Below are positions 3,182 through 58,765 of a stretch of DNA of 64,000 nucleotides, piece by piece. Below the pieces are notes generated by a model. That model ran no database searches, was not told where the DNA came from, and saw only the letters and a list, made by a program, of their open reading frames with translations. How positions within the stretch are numbered: position 1 is the first letter of the stretch; each line of letters starts with the position of its first letter. The position numbers and the translations under genes were made by a program. Source of the stretch: a virus; the IMG/VR virus record IMGVR_UViG_3300012665_001507; one strand, given 5' to 3'.

Positions 3182-3904
3182 TTACGCCAACTTAAGATTT
3201 CGTAAATAATCTCTAAGAAATGCATTCTTAGGGCCACCTATTTTTTCTTCCCAAGCAGCATAGTTCTTATTGTTCTCAGCTTCCCATTGAGAGAATTGTT
3301 TCTCAGTAGGTTTTTTATTCATTGGCCATGGGTATGGTGTCCCAACAAAGTCTGGATAAACCGTTCTATTAAATACTCTTTCATCAACCAAGAACACAAA
3401 CGCTGTCAATTGGTCACCCAAGTCTGGTTCGTGGAACTCTTGTAGAATAACTCCGTTATCACGAAGTGTATTCATGTGTTGGTTTAAACTACCAAGTCTT
3501 TCTGGATTGTTGTTGGTTGTACCACCATTCAAGATGATAAACGTTTTGTCTTTGTCGGCCCATTTCTTGTAAACTTCAAAATGTGGCGGCAACCCATCAG
3601 CTGTTCTACCATAGTCAACCACAGCGTGTCCAAATTGGATACCTTGTTGAATAGGACTCAAATTATAAGGTACAAGACCATACATTCTGTATTCCAAGAA
3701 CATCATTGTTTTACGAGGCATTGAATTAGGTTTAACCTTGCACAACGCAATACGTCTGTAAAATTCTTTTACATCGATTTTTTCTTCGTAATAAGCTTCT
3801 TCATAGAAACTCCATTCTGTATCCCATGAAGAGATATCTAATATACGCATGTTTGCATCTAAGCACCATTCGTATCCACTTTTTTTTATATCACCAGCTG
3901 TCAT
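3182..3904 (-). CDS. Peptidyl-tRNA hydrolase type 2-like protein with N-terminal extension
   Basis: QGIQFGHAV and FHEPDLGDQLTA motifs, similar to the second Pth2-like gene at 24430 (QSAHAA, FREPDLNNEITA). Confidence 0.6.
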   Translation of the reverse strand: MTAGDIKKSGYEWCLDANMRILDISSWDTEWSFYEEAYYEEKIDVKEFYRRIALCKVKPNSMPRKTMMFLEYRMYGLVPYNLSPIQQGIQFGHAVVDYGRTADGLPPHFEVYKKWADKDKTFIILNGGTTNNNPERLGSLNQHMNTLRDNGVILQEFHEPDLGDQLTAFVFLVDERVFNRTVYPDFVGTPYPWPMNKKPTEKQFSQWEAENNKNYAAWEEKIGGPKNAFLRDYLRNLKLA

Positions 3905-23550: not shown

Positions 23551-23973
23551 TTAAACCCCTTCTTTACTTAACTTCAATCTATTGATTAAAGTTTCATTAT
23601 AATCTCTAATTTCTTTCCAACCCATTGGTGGTTTTGGTAATTGACTCACCGCTTCTACCAAAACATCAGCCATCCATTGAGTTTTCTTTTTAAGTTTTAC
23701 AGATTTCATTTCTCTATTCAAGAATAAAGAGTGTTTTATCCAACACTTAGCGTTAGGGTCATCGTAACGACCAATTTCCACGTTTCTATCAATAGCTTTA
23801 GGTTCTAAATTTTCATCTAACCAGATTGAGAACCAAATTTTCTCACCATCCATTGTCGTAGTTTCAACTACTCTTAAAAATTTATCATTTTTTTCACCAG
23901 AAACGAATACGTGTTGTGATGTTTTTGTTAAATATGTGTTCAATTCTTGTTGAACTTGTTCTTTTGTTTTCAT
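23551..23973 (-). CDS. Hypothetical protein downstream of the RAPP mini-ORF
   Basis: ORF track. Confidence 0.65.
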   Translation of the reverse strand: MKTKEQVQQELNTYLTKTSQHVFVSGEKNDKFLRVVETTTMDGEKIWFSIWLDENLEPKAIDRNVEIGRYDDPNAKCWIKHSLFLNREMKSVKLKKKTQWMADVLVEAVSQLPKPPMGWKEIRDYNETLINRLKLSKEGV

Positions 23974-24057
23974 TTTGTCTATGTTTTAAGTTTATTTTTA
24001 TAATTTTTGTTGTAGTTGGACATTTTATGTGTCCAAGTGTCCAAGTATTAAATAAAC

Positions 24058-24087
24058 TTAAGGCGGTGCTCTGAGAATCTACATCAT
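24058..24087 (-). promoter_or_regulatory. Mini-ORF M-M-amber-I-L-R-A-P-P-stop
   Basis: ATG ATG TAG ATT CTC AGA GCA CCG CCT TAA. Confidence 0.6.
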
Positions 24088-24116
24088 GATTTCTTTGTTT
24101 TAGTTATTGTTATTAG

Positions 24117-24186
24117 AGGTGGGGGAAGGATTCGAACCTACATACCCATTCTTGCGGAATGGTACCTACCATTTGGTTACCCCACC
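24117..24186 (-). tRNA. Atypical tRNA-Cys(GCA)-like
   Basis: GGTGGGG/CCCCACC acceptor, U73, loop CC-GCA-AG (C33 instead of U33), T-stem mismatch. Confidence 0.65.
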
Positions 24187-24191
24187 TTGTA

Positions 24192-24437
24192 TCAAGGATA
24201 AATCCTTGCTATGTTATTTATGATTTCTAATTTGGCCTTGAATTTAATCGAACCCTTGGTGCTTGGATTGTCTGGTGTTTCTTTGGTTGAAAAGCCAATA
24301 CCAGAATCCATATCTACATGGTCAACATAGTATGTTTCACCCTTGACTTTGATTACCCACATTGGAATGTTGGTATCTTGCAAGTGCATCTTGTTGAAAT
24401 GGAAAATAATCTCGGTTCTTTTATCGATTTTAAGCAT
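24192..24437 (-). CDS. Hypothetical protein
   Basis: Overlaps the Pth2 stop (translational coupling). Confidence 0.65.
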   Translation of the reverse strand: MLKIDKRTEIIFHFNKMHLQDTNIPMWVIKVKGETYYVDHVDMDSGIGFSTKETPDNPSTKGSIKFKAKLEIINNIARIYP

Positions 24438-24780
24438 GACATACCTCCTTTCCTAGTAACGGACAAGAACTTGTCAACTTTCTAGCTCTATCGCTAGGTT
24501 CAAATGCTACTGCTGTGATTTCGTTGTTCAAGTCTGGTTCACGAAATAACGTGTACTTGATACCAGACACAAGAGCTTTGCTAATCAATTTGATTAACGC
24601 TTCTTCGTCAGCGACAGTCAGTAATGCTAAATAGTTTGAATTTTTTTGCCATTGTGTAGCTTCCTGTGGATGCTCATGTTGAAAATCAATGGCTGCGTGT
24701 GCAGATTGCACCGCTTGTGTAGAAATTTGTAGGTCACGTCTTGTGACAACTCTTAATTTTTGATTGTTAATCTATTTCAT
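24430..24780 (-). CDS. Peptidyl-tRNA hydrolase type 2 with in-frame TAG at codon 3
   Basis: ATG AAA TAG ATT... continues in frame to KLRVVTRRDL...AVQSAHAA (the Pth2 N-terminal signature) and FREPDL...TAVA. Confidence 0.75.
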
Positions 24781-24835
24781 CGTTTTTGTTTTTATATAAA
24801 TATATTACTTTAATTTAAAAAGTCAAATCTTTTTG

Positions 24836-24907
24836 TGATTCTAATGGGATTCGAACCCATGCCTAATGGTTTTAGAGGCCATCGTACTGCCGTTATACTA
24901 TAGAACC
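24836..24907 (-). tRNA. Amber suppressor tRNA (anticodon CTA)
   Basis: GGTTCTA/TAGAATC acceptor, GTAT/GTAC D stem, ATGGC-CTCTAAA-ACCAT anticodon arm, ATGGG-TTCGAAT-CCCAT T arm; own promoter at 24919. Confidence 0.88.
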
Positions 24908-24957: not shown

Positions 24958-25476
24958 CTAATTTTTTTTCAAAAATTTTCCTAACCTCACCACTTTTTCT
25001 TTAAATTCCTCAAATGTACCATTGTTTTCAATAATAATATCAGCACATGTTTTATCAATATTGAATGAAGAAGCATCTTCCAACGGTAACCTACCAGAAC
25101 CATCCACCCAAATGATTATATCAAACAACCCTTGGTTGATACACTCTAATATCTCACCTCTATCACGCATCCCAACATAACAATCAGCCATCTCAAGGAT
25201 TCCTTTTGCTAATCTAGCTCTATCTTCCTTGTTGTAGTCGCAAATAGCTTCATACCATTCTTGTCTGTGATTAACTCGGTCTTCAAAGCACTCAACTGAG
25301 TTTTGATACCCGTACTTATCTTTCAATAAATCATAAAGAAAAATATCAGCCGCAGCTTGTGATGAGGAAACAAACGTTAACCCAAATTCTTCATTCATGA
25401 TTTCAGCTAATGAATCCTTACCATGTCTCGCATGACCGATAATTAGCATTTTCTTAAAATTGCTTTCTAATCCCAT
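24958..25476 (-). CDS. Deoxynucleoside monophosphate kinase-like P-loop protein
   Basis: GHARHGKD Walker A; DIIIENNG C-terminal motif. Confidence 0.65.
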   Translation of the reverse strand: MGLESNFKKMLIIGHARHGKDSLAEIMNEEFGLTFVSSSQAAADIFLYDLLKDKYGYQNSVECFEDRVNHRQEWYEAICDYNKEDRARLAKGILEMADCYVGMRDRGEILECINQGLFDIIIWVDGSGRLPLEDASSFNIDKTCADIIIENNGTFEEFKEKVVRLGKFLKKN

Positions 25477-25724
25477 TCTTCTAATGTTTTATCTCTGTTT
25501 TCAATTACACATCTTAATGCTAGTTCAATATCACAATGATAATTTAAGATTTGACCTTCTATTATCATGCATGTATTAACACCCAATGCTGTGTAAAACT
25601 TTTCTTTGTCAATATCAAACTTCTCCAAAATGTCATTGGTTTCGCTACCCAAAAACCCATGTTTGTGTTTTGTTGGGTACGTGTCGATAAATTCAGTTAA
25701 ATTCTCTGATGTTAACTTATCCAT
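25467..25724 (-). CDS. Hypothetical protein
   Basis: ORF track, coupled to neighbours. Confidence 0.6.
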   Translation of the reverse strand: MDKLTSENLTEFIDTYPTKHKHGFLGSETNDILEKFDIDKEKFYTALGVNTCMIIEGQILNYHCDIELALRCVIENRDKTLEEWD

Positions 25725-26036: not shown

Positions 26037-26714
26037 TTATGCAAGTAATTCTAATTTTCCTCGTAAGATATCTTTCAAACTGGCTGTTTTATTGGTAAGG
26101 TGGTCAACAACAACACCATCTTTTACTCGATATGTTCTACGTTTGTCACTTCTATCACCCTTACCAATTTGTTCACGTCTTTCTTCAACCTCTTCAGAAG
26201 TATGACCTGTACGATAAAATTCATTTACACGTCTTTTAAGCTCTTTTAAAGCATCTTCTTTGTTCTTGTGTTGATTCCTTCCATCTCGAACTACTTTGAG
26301 CCCTGTAGCCACGTGTGTAACCACCACACAAGAATCTGTGGTGTTCTTATGTTGACCACCATTCCCAGTTCCTCTGGTTGTTTCCAAACGATATTCACTA
26401 GGATGTAATTCTACTTCCTTGTACTCGTTTTCCTCTAAAATTGCTACAGTAATTGAACTGGTATGAACTCTACCCTTTCTTTCGGTTGGTGGGACTCTTT
26501 GCCACCTGTGGTTTCCCACTTCGTTGCTAAAGACTTCTTTTACATTCTTGCCTGTTAGTCAGATACTAACAAACCCTAACCTATCTTCGGTTATCAGTCA
26601 GTCGATGTTATTGTTTTTCGCTGTTTTGATGTAAATGTCTCGCATTTCACAAACCAACAGCTTCGCATCGGTTCCACCCTCTGCATCACGGATTTCTAAT
26701 AAGATTTTTCCCAT
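26037..26714 (-). CDS. Class I release factor, RF1-like, lacking domain 1, with two in-frame TGA
   Basis: MGKILLEIRDAEGG...; TGA at codons 39 and 52; GNHRWQRVPPTE..GRVHTS (PxT), GGQ, RNQHKNK, RTY. Confidence 0.85.
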
Positions 26715-27071: not shown

Positions 27072-27131
27072 TGGAACTGTCCAGACTTACAACTCTGCCT
27101 TTCGGCTGTCCAAGTTAAATGCCCTGTTCCA
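27072..27131 (-). ncRNA. Hairpin with two GGACA internal loops and a GAAA tetraloop
   Basis: TGGAAC..GTTCCA outer stem, GCC-GAAA-GGC cap. Confidence 0.55.
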
Positions 27132-28082: not shown

Positions 28083-28169
28083 ATTTTAAACAAAAAACCC
28101 TCAACAAAGCGACTTGTCAAGGGTTGTAATTTCTACCCCAAAGGCGGGCTGGGGAGAATCAATGGTGAG

Positions 28170-28521
28170 TGGAGATAAGGGGAATCGAACCCCTGTGTTG
28201 AACATTCTTCAAAAGCTTTCTACATGTTTAGGTCATAGTTTGTGAAACTATCCGAAATTTTGCAACATTTACGGCTACTTGCTCTCCTAGTAGAGTACTA
28301 CCATCAATGGACTACCATTATTTAGTGGTTTACCACCATTTGCAATAATTAGGCTACTGCTACCTCTCCAGCGAAACTACATGTAGCTTCAGTAAGGAAA
28401 TTTTCTGATACGATAAAATCGTTGTCAATTCATTGTTTTAATAGACAGATTAAAGTGCTTCCAATCTAGCACTACATGCTTACAGTTTACGACTATATTC
28501 AGTCAATACCGTGGTATCCCC
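28170..28521 (-). ncRNA. ssrA: tmRNA
   Basis: 5' GGGGATA..TTGAC; 3' CAGGGGTTCGATTCCCCTTATCTCCA with G3:U70; internal ORF DNDFIVSENFLTEATCSFAGEVAVA* (28349-28426). Confidence 0.9.
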
Positions 28522-41795: not shown

Positions 41796-44114
41796 CTAGT
41801 TTACTTTTTTTTTTGACGGCATTGAATTAACAGCCGCACTAGTTGAAACACCGTGTTCGTCACCGTATTCATCCAAGTTACCATCATCGTCCATTCTATC
41901 CATAAGAGTTTCCAAATATTTAGCTGGATTCATTTTTGCCATTTCTTTATCTTCCAACGGAACTGGAACTGGTTTTGGTCCACCACCAACGATAAAGTAT
42001 TCACCTGTTGATTGACTAACCATAAGTCTAGGACCCGCTTTAGCTACTGGTGCAGATGGAACAACAATATCGTCTTCATCATCTTCGTCATCAACGCTAG
42101 GGATATCTGAAGTTATTTCGTCATCAGCTGGTTCAGCGTCAACATCTTCATCTTCATCGTCAGATTTGTTATAATCATCTTCATAATCTTCTTCGTCTTC
42201 TTCTTCCTTAACCATTTCTTCTTTTTCTTCCATGTAGTTTTCATTGATTGGTGCGAAGAAAACACCGTTTAAAGTAACACCTTCAGCAACCACTTCTTTG
42301 TCATCTTCTGCTTCTTCTTCTTTAGCTTCAGTTTTAACTTTAGCTTTAGATTCAGTACCCATATGTACATGTTTTTTAGCTTCAGCAGCATGAGGAACAT
42401 TTACATCTTCCCAGTGACCGTTTGCAGCTTTGGTTCCTTCGATATTTCCAGATTTAGAAACTTCTTTAACCATTCCTTCTTCTTCAGTTTCTTCTTCGTA
42501 CATACCTTCTTTAACTGTTTCCTCTTCCTCTTCTTCTTTATACATACCTTCTTCGTACATACTCTCTTTCATTGTTACATGTTTAGTAGCTTCTGGAGCT
42601 TTTTTCTTAACCTCTTCAAAGTTTCCAGTTTTTGGTGCTGGAGCTTTTGTTCCTTTTTCAGTCGATACCGAACCTTCAATATCTTTTTTAGCTTCAGCAG
42701 CATATGATACAGCGTCATCTAAATCACCTTCTTTAGCAGCTGGTGCTTGTGCTTTATCTTTAGATACAGAACCTTGTACATGTTTAGTAGCTTCTGGAGC
42801 TTTTTTAGTTACATCTTCAAAGTTTCCAGTTTTAGCCTTAGCACTTTCAATGTCTTCACCTTCTAAAAGGGTTTTAGTTTTATTCCAGATATCTCCAAAT
42901 GCAACATTCTCATCAAGTCTCGCAAGTCCTTTTACAGTACCTAAAGTATCTTGTGATTTGTAACCCATAAGGTGTTTCATTTTTTGCATATCTTCGTTAA
43001 GCATAGTTTTATCAGAAGCCAAAAGAACTACAGCTTTACCTTCGTTCAAATTACCTTCCCAACGAACTTTACATGAAACTGAACCATCAGTCATTTCAAA
43101 TTCTTTATTGTCTACTTTATAACTTTCTGGGATTAACGTTAAAGCATGACCCAATTTTTGTGTTAGATTAACACCTTCAAATGGTTTATCGCCATTTTTG
43201 TTAAACTTTAATCTTTTCATCGTTTCTTTTATTTGTGGTTTATTATTGTCATTGTTTTCAAACATACCCATATCTTTCATGGCTTGTTTTTCTAATTTAT
43301 TAGCTAATGATTTAGCAGATTTAATTGCCATTTCAAAGTTACCTTTTTCTAACAACGAAGCAACTTTATTGATACCGTTACCATATTCCATACTATCTGG
43401 AAAATCAGATACCATACCTGTTTCACTTACTTTATTAACTAATTTAACAGCTGTTTCATTTGCACCTATCTTGGCAACCAAATTTGTTAAGTTATCTCTT
43501 AATTTATCAGAAATACCTTCATTAACAGGTTTTGCGTTTACACTTTCATTGGTTGAATATGCTGAATGAACTCTGGCTGGTTTGAAGCCTTTAGGTAAGA
43601 TTTCAATATCTCCACCAAAACTTAATATTTTATCAGTTTGGTCTTTTCTTTTCTTTGCAGAAGCTTCAGCATTTTTAAGTCTTTCTTTTCCAAAATCATC
43701 AGAAGAAACACCTTCCATCGCTTCAGCGTTACCCATATCTTTACCGCCTTTGTTACCCATTCTAGTGCTACCTTCTAAAGATTCTTTTGCTCTATCACTG
43801 AATTGTTTACCAACTGGTCTATCGTATTCAATCGATTCTTGACCATTCATGATTTCCATTTGGTTGTGGTACTCTAGTTCTCCGTCTTCGTAGTTGAATT
43901 TGTTTTGAGCCATCTTAGACATATCTTTGTCTTTTTTGACATCTTTGTCGTATGCTGTCAAATCTTTTTCAATAGCTTTAACACCAGCTTTGTTTTGCTC
44001 ACCAGATTTCTTATTCACAGCGTTAGTAACAGTGATACCAGGAGTATTAGCTGTTTCTTTTGCTTCAGATAAGAATCTTTCAGATAAGTGTTGTTTAATT
44101 ATATTTTTGTCCAT
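41796..44114 (-). CDS. Large acidic, repeat-containing putative internal virion/scaffold protein
   Basis: Repeats KTGNFE.V.KKAPEATKHV; many hydrophobic-x-E sites; TATTTAT upstream. Confidence 0.6.
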   Translation of the reverse strand: MDKNIIKQHLSERFLSEAKETANTPGITVTNAVNKKSGEQNKAGVKAIEKDLTAYDKDVKKDKDMSKMAQNKFNYEDGELEYHNQMEIMNGQESIEYDRPVGKQFSDRAKESLEGSTRMGNKGGKDMGNAEAMEGVSSDDFGKERLKNAEASAKKRKDQTDKILSFGGDIEILPKGFKPARVHSAYSTNESVNAKPVNEGISDKLRDNLTNLVAKIGANETAVKLVNKVSETGMVSDFPDSMEYGNGINKVASLLEKGNFEMAIKSAKSLANKLEKQAMKDMGMFENNDNNKPQIKETMKRLKFNKNGDKPFEGVNLTQKLGHALTLIPESYKVDNKEFEMTDGSVSCKVRWEGNLNEGKAVVLLASDKTMLNEDMQKMKHLMGYKSQDTLGTVKGLARLDENVAFGDIWNKTKTLLEGEDIESAKAKTGNFEDVTKKAPEATKHVQGSVSKDKAQAPAAKEGDLDDAVSYAAEAKKDIEGSVSTEKGTKAPAPKTGNFEEVKKKAPEATKHVTMKESMYEEGMYKEEEEEETVKEGMYEEETEEEGMVKEVSKSGNIEGTKAANGHWEDVNVPHAAEAKKHVHMGTESKAKVKTEAKEEEAEDDKEVVAEGVTLNGVFFAPINENYMEEKEEMVKEEEDEEDYEDDYNKSDDEDEDVDAEPADDEITSDIPSVDDEDDEDDIVVPSAPVAKAGPRLMVSQSTGEYFIVGGGPKPVPVPLEDKEMAKMNPAKYLETLMDRMDDDGNLDEYGDEHGVSTSAAVNSMPSKKKVN

Positions 44115-57866: not shown

Positions 57867-58130
57867 TTAATTCTGATTTTCCAAATAAATTTTAGAAATA
57901 TAGTTTTCAATGATTAATTTGGTAATCCTTTCTTTTTTGAGATGGAATTTGGTGTCGTTGAGATATTTCTTACGAATGGTCTTATAAGTATGAAGAATAG
58001 CTGTATCACGTAGATTGTAAGTCATATCAACACCATACTCTAAATTGTATTCTGACAATTTAATTTCTACGTAGTATTTGATGTAGTTTAATAACTCATC
58101 ATTGGTGTTGTCGATATCTATGCTTTCCAT
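57867..58130 (-). CDS. Hypothetical protein
   Basis: ORF track. Confidence 0.5.
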   Translation of the reverse strand: MESIDIDNTNDELLNYIKYYVEIKLSEYNLEYGVDMTYNLRDTAILHTYKTIRKKYLNDTKFHLKKERITKLIIENYISKIYLENQN

Positions 58131-58765
58131 GCTTCAATCTTGTTCATATAACCACGTGCAGCGGTATAAGCATCAGATGTGTCAAAAGTTTCTTTCTTTA
58201 ATTTGTTGTTTTTGTCATAGAACCAACTAACTTGTGGTTCTAACTCAGCAACTTTTTCCCAAAGAACATATTTCTTATCAACATCAAAAGGAAAATCACC
58301 AAACAACACAGGAACGTTCTTAGCGATTTGTTTTTCTAATAGAGGTGTTCCATCCTTTTTTGTTTTTCTAATAGCCATAAGCTCTGGAAATGCATATTTA
58401 CGTGCATCGTAAGATGAGATGAATTCTGGTACAATCCCCAAAGTATCATAAACAGATTTTGAAATCATTCCATTGAATCTTAATAACGTTGCGATTGTAT
58501 AAACGTTGTTTGATTGAAGAAGTGGTTCTTCAATTACAACTCTGGTAATACCAAAATCACTATAGTGTGAAAGGAATTCGTTTTCAAAGATTTCAACTTT
58601 TTTAAACAATTCTTCCATTTTATTATCTGGTTTTGGTTTTACTTTAGGTGATACGTGGTGCAACAATTTAAGCTCACCTTTATGTCCTAAGTCTTCAAAT
58701 AATGCAATACCTATAGTAGATGTTGATACATCTAACGCCAATAAAAATTCTGGTTCTTTTGTCAT
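58118..58765 (-). CDS. RuvC-like Holliday junction resolvase
   Basis: LALDVSTSTIG, VVIEE, D.SDA. Confidence 0.8.
   Translation of the reverse strand: MTKEPEFLLALDVSTSTIGIALFEDLGHKGELKLLHHVSPKVKPKPDNKMEELFKKVEIFENEFLSHYSDFGITRVVIEEPLLQSNNVYTIATLLRFNGMISKSVYDTLGIVPEFISSYDARKYAFPELMAIRKTKKDGTPLLEKQIAKNVPVLFGDFPFDVDKKYVLWEKVAELEPQVSWFYDKNNKLKKETFDTSDAYTAARGYMNKIEAWKA

Follow-up and report, generated by a model that had tools for sequence, protein, structure and literature searches.

On the minus strand of the 64-kb window (the whole stretch of DNA that was analysed), positions 24087-24058 read ATG ATG TAG ATT CTC AGA GCA CCG CCT TAA. This locus raises the question of whether a reading frame this short, with an amber codon in frame, is a translated leader and, if it is, what it would sense and which gene it would control. 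An earlier note on this DNA had read the frame as MM*ILRAPP, had placed it in the same transcription direction as the suppressor tRNA, and had likened its layout to that of a Pth2-like gene. The exact codons, the shared minus-strand direction of the leader and tRNA-CUA, and the start of the Pth2-like gene all agree with that description (Table 1). The leader ATG lies 28 nt from the 3' end of a tRNA-Cys gene and the leader is separated by 84 nt from a downstream gene of 140 aa.

Table 1. Coordinates of the features at the leader locus (positions in the 64-kb window).
Feature	Position	Strand	Basis
tRNA, anticodon CUA (amber suppressor)	24835..24907	(-)	ARAGORN; Rfam tRNA 63.4 bits
Pth2-like gene, start ATG AAA TAG ATT	24430..24780	(-)	Pfam PF01981, E 2.5e-08 with TAG read through
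81-aa gene, ATG overlapping the Pth2 end (ATGCTTAA)	24192..24437, overlap 24430-24437	(-)	
tRNA-Cys(GCA), C not U at position 33	24116..24186	(-)	ARAGORN; 47.9 bits
Leader mini-ORF, M-M-UAG-I-L-R-A-P-P-stop	24058..24087	(-)	sequence; frame kept in 22/22 loci
Leader codons, beginning	ATG 24087-24085, ATG 24084-24082, TAG 24081-24079, ATT 24078-24076, then CTC	(-)	
Leader codons, end	AGA 24072-24070, GCA, CCG 24066-24064, CCT 24063-24061, TAA 24060-24058	(-)	
RAPP codons of the leader	24072-24061	(-)	
Outer stem, 5' arm	24047..24061	(-)	MFE pair list; covariation
Inner repeat module	24016..24044	(-)	TTGGACA 24044-24038, TTGGACA 24036-24030, TGTCCAA 24022-24016
Outer stem, 3' arm	23986..24004, core AATAAACTTAA 23996-23986	(-)	MFE pair list, relatives' folds
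140-aa gene, presumed regulated, N-terminus MKTxEQ...TKTSxHLF	23551..23973	(-)	ORF list

The neighbourhood is the translation module of a jumbo-phage-like genome with 34% GC. This module contains 15 tRNAs, a CCA-adding enzyme, an RF1-like gene, and a tmRNA. The tmRNA gene (28167-28500, minus strand; Rfam RF00023, 47 bits) is cut at its 5' end by the search range. The RF1-like gene (26037-26714, minus strand) encodes the PPT and GGQ motifs without domain 1. Its frame is broken by TGA at 26600-26598 and again at 26561-26559, and this gene is a pseudogene or else a second one that is gated by stop codons. A megablast search of the region against GenBank phages gave no match. The genome uses the standard code. 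Open reading frames called with table 11 are long and tightly packed, TAG terminates 10 of the 78 open reading frames of the window, and when TAG was read as Gln only Pth2 and a few gene ends in the window became longer. Several ordinary genes on the minus strand (24958-25476, 25467-25724, 41796-44114, and 58118-58765) end in TAG followed by A, as in the gated UAGs, so that an active suppressor would lengthen their products by a few residues.

Motif counts within the window say little about the leader. ATGNNNTAGAT occurs five times compared with 2.95 expected, which is not above chance, and TTGGACA occurs nine times compared with 12.5 expected and is not enriched. The RAPP of the leader is the only R[AG]PP, RAGP or RAPG in the six frames of the 64 kb. 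A search of the window with model R1 for a second copy of the element returned only noise (E 0.4-0.8). At the level of sequence, we would take the comparison with relatives, and not these counts, as the decisive evidence for the leader. Related loci were gathered with the neighbouring 81-aa and Pth2 proteins (67 plus 14 viral and 80 metagenome loci) and come mostly from phage contigs of 200-385 kb. For the key test, loci were located solely through the N-terminus of the downstream protein family (M..TKTSxHLF), yielding 22 distinct upstream regions, and a region was scored positive when it contained a mini-ORF in which 5-7 codons follow an in-frame TAG and Pro is among the last three residues. 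All 22 regions were positive. For random 170-nt windows the rate was 2%, and of the 59 gene upstream regions of the window a single one was positive, the leader locus itself. Because it is kept in 22/22 relatives against this low background, the leader is not a chance ORF. The earlier note had suggested looking for the amber mini-ORF in related phages, and there the design recurs with the alignment columns for ATG, TAG, and stop invariant. The TAG is codon 3 in 21 of the 22 leaders. At locus L129 (about 1540-1580) the UAG is instead at codon 5 or 7, in MNMRTK*IVSRGP-stop. As judged from these sequences, codon 3 appears to be strongly preferred for the UAG, yet not obligatory.

The related leaders encode MM*ILRAPP, MM*IIRAPP, MK*IIRAPP, MR*IARAPT, MN*ITRAPT, MR*IIRGPT, MT*IRGPT, and MM*IHKRGP. 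Further members are MS*VPRAP, MM*IARPPN, MM*IRPPT, MR*IIREPP, MK*IRRKPP, MK*IRKKPP, MK*ILNKPP, and MM*VFKPP. Their cores vary among RAPP, RAPT, RGPT, RGP-stop, RAP-stop, RPPN/T, REPP, and RKPP, with an R-x-P core in 19/22; three lineages, with KKPP, NKPP, and FKPP, are without the core Arg. In our tally, Arg is encoded by AGA (22), CGA (5), or CGT (1) and Pro by CCG (15), CCA (15), CCT (9), or CCC (1). Codon 4 is conserved as Ile or Val (ATT 16, ATA 6, GTN 3) and codon 2 is free (ATG, AAA, AGA, AAT, ACA, AGC, TAC, or CGT). The leader ORF is 27 or 30 nt long, changes in length in threes, and ends in TAA (19) or TGA (5), never in TAG in true members. A single tallied TAG final stop, at L051, was judged to be a chance hit. 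The synonymous changes at Arg and Pro, the lengths in threes, and the invariant ATG, TAG, and stop therefore point to selection on a product translated past the UAG, and the overall pattern would fit such a product rather than a nucleotide motif. There is no Shine-Dalgarno sequence before the leader, only an A-rich upstream region with a weak GAAA. A likeness of CACCGCCUUA to the 3' tail of 16S rRNA was dismissed since it follows from the Pro codons and the UAA, and the bases are mostly unpaired.

Of 15 related loci that were scanned, 13 have a tRNA-CUA gene no more than about 1 kb from the leader, and the other two are short fragments. A search among the tRNAs of the window for the parent of tRNA-CUA found no clear relative. 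Locus L013 has two tRNA-CUA copies around the leader (2495-2566 and 3329-3402). The tRNA-Cys(GCA), which always accompanies tRNA-CUA, has C at position 33 where U is near-universal (loop CCGCAAG). Two copies of it surround the leader at L014 (3261-3333 and 3553-3626), and at L010 and L011 (3261-3330) the tRNA at its place has a 6-nt anticodon loop for which ARAGORN gave the two-base anticodon 'ga'.

The leader is one of a few local reading frames with an amber codon near the start. An ATG-NNN-TAG-AT(T/A) start is common to Pth2 in all relatives, and in distant relatives the 81-aa gene has its own ATG-NNN-TAG-ATT start behind a strong AAGGAG. The amber-start motif in relatives gave 87 hits on the gene strand compared with 12 on the other strand. 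ATG-NNN-TAG-ATT was rejected as a genome-wide signal; its count in five whole relatives equalled that of a reversed-pattern control. Elsewhere in the relatives' genomes, 20 extra hits of ATGNNNTAGATT were inspected and were out of frame inside genes, indicating that the set of amber starts is small and local (Pth2, the 81-aa gene, and the leader). In the window the 81-aa gene is probably translationally coupled to the amber-gated Pth2, because its ATG overlaps the Pth2 end. The purine that follows UAG at these starts fits a context that favours amber suppression. The base 3' of UAG influences recognition by RF1 (PMC6412442). The cultured Rhizobium phage RHph_I1_18 (L189, MN988519.1) has an annotated tRNA(cta), an unannotated 81-aa homologue with an in-frame TAG (MSEFM*NES...), and a mini-ORF, ML*FKPP*, behind GAGGAG just upstream of EVB91_021; the coordinates of these features are 2460-2704, 2728-2805, and 3355-3381. 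Its leader was left out of the stem architecture described below because its fold differs.

The 140-aa family is linked to the leader in 22/22 loci. Pfam and PHROG searches with the 140-aa protein gave no hit, its AlphaFold2 model was weak (pLDDT 63.7) with no match by Foldseek, and the ESM Atlas contained only unnamed clusters. There is no Shine-Dalgarno sequence before this gene. Alignment of the family against viral contigs confirmed only close relatives, with confirmation by the first sequence only.

The MFE fold of the window and of every relative contains a long, A/U-rich stem that connects the end of the leader with the region before the downstream gene. In the window, the last base of the final Pro codon is the first of the 5' arm, which includes the TAA, and the 3' arm ends 12 nt before the downstream ATG. 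Across loci the stem is 11-15 bp long, the stop codon is paired or the 5' arm begins there in 19/22 MFE folds, the distance from the end of the 3' arm to the downstream ATG is 3-14 nt, and fold z-scores are -2.8 to -3.75. At L016 and L132 the 3' arm overlaps the downstream ATG, and at L023 it reaches an AGGAG Shine-Dalgarno sequence, whose UUAGG pairs with CCUAA. In these folds the Pro codons stay largely unpaired.

The two arms vary together. The change of the stop from TAA to TGA at L125 and L128 is matched by a change of the partner from U to C. Stem position +3 is G-C, U-A, A-U, or G-U among the leaders, and at position +7 A-U and U-A each occur in 10 leaders. With a plain MAFFT alignment, 74.8% of the cells of the 11-bp helix were paired, a value that 0/500 shuffles reached, and slid controls paired in 36-66%. 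RNAalifold found no structure in this plain alignment because the 3' arm is misaligned there, and the stem was then assessed by per-sequence folds, a hand-given structure, and a covariance model. In the alignment fitted to the covariance model (A3), which leans to structure and includes four noise rows, 81.8% of cells were paired compared with 66.8% in shuffles, slid controls gave 31-59%, both-sided changes occurred in 10/11 pairs, and there were 36 compensatory cells compared with 10.8 +/- 2.2 (0/500 shuffles). A duplex of the stop-codon segment with the -45..+6 segment of the next gene was more stable than 1000 dinucleotide shuffles at p<=0.05 in 11 of 12 loci (p 0.10 at L018); to combine these values across related sequences overstates their independence.

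The position of the stem was compared with the reach of a ribosome on the leader. Known toeprint positions put the edge of ribosome protection about 15-16 nt downstream from the first base in the P site. A ribosome that has codon 2 in its P site and the UAG in its A site would shield the RNA only to about 24069 and would not reach the stem. Once CCG or CCT occupies the P site, the shielded segment runs to 24051 or 24048 and takes in the whole 5' arm. In a partition-function simulation with a ribosome at the UAG, the unpaired fraction over positions -30..-1 of the downstream start was 0.53, no different from free RNA, and a ribosome at the last sense codon raised this to 0.87; this was so in all 22 leaders. 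Comparison among the leaders thus supports an outer stem that would be opened only by a ribosome past the UAG. The folds suggest that the stem masks downstream initiation, and this masking would be partial because most 3' arms stop 10-12 nt before the start codon.

The earlier note had sought the switch in the repeats that lie downstream of the leader and ahead of the 140-aa ORF. The two TTGGACA copies and the one TGTCCAA are where it had put them, and the second TTGGACA forms a 7-bp hairpin with TGTCCAA within the loop of the outer stem. The part of its claim that most likely does not stand is the alternative pairing as the main switch. Both direct copies compete for one partner, so the repeats alone make no switch, and the switch is most likely the outer stem that starts from the stop codon and encloses this hairpin. 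The relatives keep modules of two direct and one inverted repeat with altered heptamers, such as ATAGACA/TGTCTAT, and some have two consecutive modules. Heptamers of the form [T/A]T[G/A]GACA occur in modules in the leader loops of L005, L009, L013, L111, L117, and L124, and TTGGACA is also found at 27107-27113 (minus strand), within a structured-RNA region. The first copy retains a GGACA or AGACA core even where pairing is impossible, and the GGACA-type heptamers may be a protein-binding motif. A sigma-70 promoter was rejected as an explanation of the repeats for lack of good spacing, as was an intrinsic terminator for lack of a U-tract.

Our main reading, to which we assign a probability of about 0.6, is that the mini-ORF is a translated leader gated by UAG readthrough, in which a paused ribosome would open the stem and unmask the next gene. 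It is less certain that the pause would be a true RAPP-type arrest. From the observed sequence, its conservation, the codon-level pattern, the covariation of the stem, and the geometry, we infer translation, readthrough by tRNA-CUA, stalling, and the direction in which the downstream gene would respond. The leader peptide would report whether the UAG undergoes readthrough. Without suppression, ribosomes that start at ATG 24087 would stop at the UAG of codon 3 and leave the stem unreached. With the phage tRNA-CUA inserting an amino acid at the UAG, in its UAG-A context, I-L-R-A-P-P would be made and the ribosome would then pause or arrest at the R-A-P/P core or at Pro-Pro-stop. With its P site on CCG or CCT, it would cover 24061 to about 24048. 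These are the positions of the 5' arm, through which the leader stop codon would otherwise be paired with an A/U-rich stretch 12-30 nt ahead of the 140-aa gene. As long as the stem was kept open, this stretch would be free for initiation of the 140-aa gene. Under this proposal three consecutive genes would depend on one tRNA, because Pth2 has a UAG of its own at codon 3 and the 81-aa gene would be coupled to Pth2. The earlier note had likewise proposed that only ribosomes reading through the UAG reach RAPP and control the gene at 23551-23973. The invariant TAG, the R-x-P frame, the linkage to the downstream gene, the nearby tRNA-CUA, and the placement of the stem support this proposal, and what has to be changed in it is which structure switches.

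How far the pause resembles known arrest can be judged from published peptides. Ribosomes stall on RAPP, RGPP, RAGP, and RAPG cores when the P-site tRNA carries R-A-P and the A site holds the fourth residue, the core Arg is irreplaceable in ApcA, ApdA, and ApdP, replacement of the core Ala by Gly is fully permissive and by Pro, Asp, Ser, or Glu partly permissive, and a RAPP core by itself is insufficient (PMC12992588). RAPP, RGPP, RAPT, RGPT, and RAP* are among published RAPP-like cores, and RAPT, RGPT, and RAP-stop were found in uORFs that cluster with ApcA (PMC10987492). In ApdP, 5-6 residues before RAPP matter; six contribute and five set species specificity (PMC10951233). The phage leaders have only 5 residues available before R-A-P, and the nascent chain at the proposed arrest point is only 8 residues long. 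Since the KKPP, NKPP, and FKPP members have no Arg, strict RAPP-type arrest is not universal in the family.

These members without Arg agree with an alternative in which the leader is gated by the UAG without true nascent-chain arrest. A ribosome reaching the TAA would melt the stem in passing or during slow Pro-Pro-stop termination, and this transient coupling would activate the next gene. The placement of the stem relative to the stop codon, the most conserved feature, is what such coupling would use, and a C-terminal Pro is known to slow termination. Termination is also least efficient after poly-Pro (PMC6412442). However, simple coupling needs no R-x-P, and this core is kept in 19/22 leaders with synonymous AGA and CGA codons. 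We consider the alternative unlikely.

We think it quite unlikely that the leader acts on transcription or RNA fate in the manner of TnaC, with a parked ribosome blocking Rho loading or an RNase site that release at the UAG would expose. The ribosome would be parked directly beside the stop codon, as in tnaC, and the loop region has C-containing, G-poor stretches. A synthetic switch of this kind also works in this way: as cited in PMC6412442, Liu, Qi, Yanofsky and Arkin (2011) placed an amber codon in the tnaC leader, making downstream expression dependent on tRNA-CUA. The phage leader shares its Pro-stop end with TnaC and the proposed tRNA-CUA logic with the synthetic version. By contrast, TnaC acts via Rho and senses tryptophan, and its amber version is man-made, whereas the phage leader occurs in nature and its apparent point of action is initiation. 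The stem is not followed by an intrinsic terminator, and the covarying element pairs beside the downstream start, covering the ATG or the Shine-Dalgarno sequence at L016, L132, and L023; this pairing therefore points to initiation control.

An ORF that is untranslated would be harder still to reconcile with the data, and we regard it as improbable. Here the conserved bases would be an RNA or DNA element, such as a trailer or processing site of tRNA-Cys or a protein-binding site, and the frame would be incidental. The short distance from the tRNA (28 nt), the missing Shine-Dalgarno sequence, and the resemblance of the GGACA-type repeats to binding sites are compatible with this. However, variation at third positions and between AGA and CGA, lengths in threes, and invariant ATG, TAG, and stop are features of a coding sequence, the element remains in loci without tRNA-Cys (L016, L018, and L023), and the mostly unpaired Pro codons are not explained by the stem. 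It is very improbable that ATG-NNN-TAG is a two-codon minigene like lambda bar, acting by peptidyl-tRNA drop-off linked to Pth2 rather than by readthrough; two codons and a stop do lie beside a peptidyl-tRNA hydrolase gene, but beyond the TAG the relatives conserve a peptide-coding frame that has its own stop, and codon 2 varies freely so that no particular tRNA is targeted.

Compared with known systems, the leader that we propose resembles the RAPP-like arrest peptides (ApdA, ApdP, ApcA; SecM with RAGP; the RQH family; Streptomyces RAPP/RGPP uORFs), with which it shares R-[A/G]-P-x near the stop (PMC7897499, PMC10987492, PMC10951233, PMC12992588). It also shares with them a uORF directly before the regulated gene, an mRNA helix at the stall site that involves the downstream initiation region, and the variant cores RAPT, RGPT, and RAP-stop of the ApcA-cluster uORFs. 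In contrast, RAPP-like peptides are roughly 60-170 codons long and the phage leader only 9, which leaves no room for the signal peptide or membrane segment that they have. Thus, there would be no release by pulling force and the leaders would not monitor substrates. The phage leader also differs in that its motif is gated by an in-frame UAG, that it is encoded by a phage beside a suppressor tRNA, and that some members of its family have no Arg. We have filed the element as one that probably works like a RAPP-type arrest leader and is not a proven member of that family, because the core rules fit 19/22 leaders, there is no secretion signal, and three lineages break the Arg rule.

Other leaders share single aspects of the design. 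In the ermCL, ermBL, and cat/cmlA leaders, a ribosome stalled with a chain of 8-10 residues covers the arm of a helix that masks the initiation region of the next gene. The phage leader would have this chain length and this covered helix arm in common with these drug-sensing leaders; the input there is an antibiotic and here would be stop-codon readthrough. In prfB, which encodes RF2, an early in-frame stop senses termination efficiency through a +1 frameshift inside the gene. The early stop as a sensor would be shared, and prfB has neither a suppressor tRNA nor a leader. Code 15 phages likewise have a phage tRNA-CUA in a standard-code host, and readthrough has been proposed to time expression in them (bioRxiv 10.1101/2021.08.26.457843, PMC9523058). 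Unlike those phages, which have many, typically late, TAG genes, the genome described here is not recoded, and its in-frame TAG codons are confined to the beginnings of two or three small ORFs that neighbour the tRNA. The full-text literature that we searched covers RAPP peptides, phage recoding, and the synthetic UAG-in-leader switch, and describes no natural amber-gated leader.

We see about an even chance that this locus is a natural sensor of the state of the genetic code. It would be a 9-residue, UAG-gated, RAPP-type arrest peptide in a clade of standard-code jumbo phages, with the gene on only when the suppressor tRNA outcompetes release factor 1, and together with the UAGs of Pth2 and the 81-aa gene it would form a small suppressor-dependent regulon. 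If so, it would be the first natural leader-peptide switch known to us with readthrough as its input, such switches having previously been only synthetic (UAG in tnaC). It would also define a minimal stalling peptide of the RAPP type, with 8-9 residues shorter than any other of its kind, that could be useful for study of the core without a long nascent chain and as a compact readout of amber suppression. Gene callers overlook ORFs that contain amber codons, as with the unannotated 81-aa homologue of RHph_I1_18, and this cultured phage could serve as an experimental system. Many standard-code phages carry suppressor tRNAs with no evident purpose, and this locus offers conserved targets in the form of three small reading frames beside the tRNA. 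If the locus is such a sensor, the orphan suppressor tRNAs of non-recoded phages would gain a defined regulatory target.
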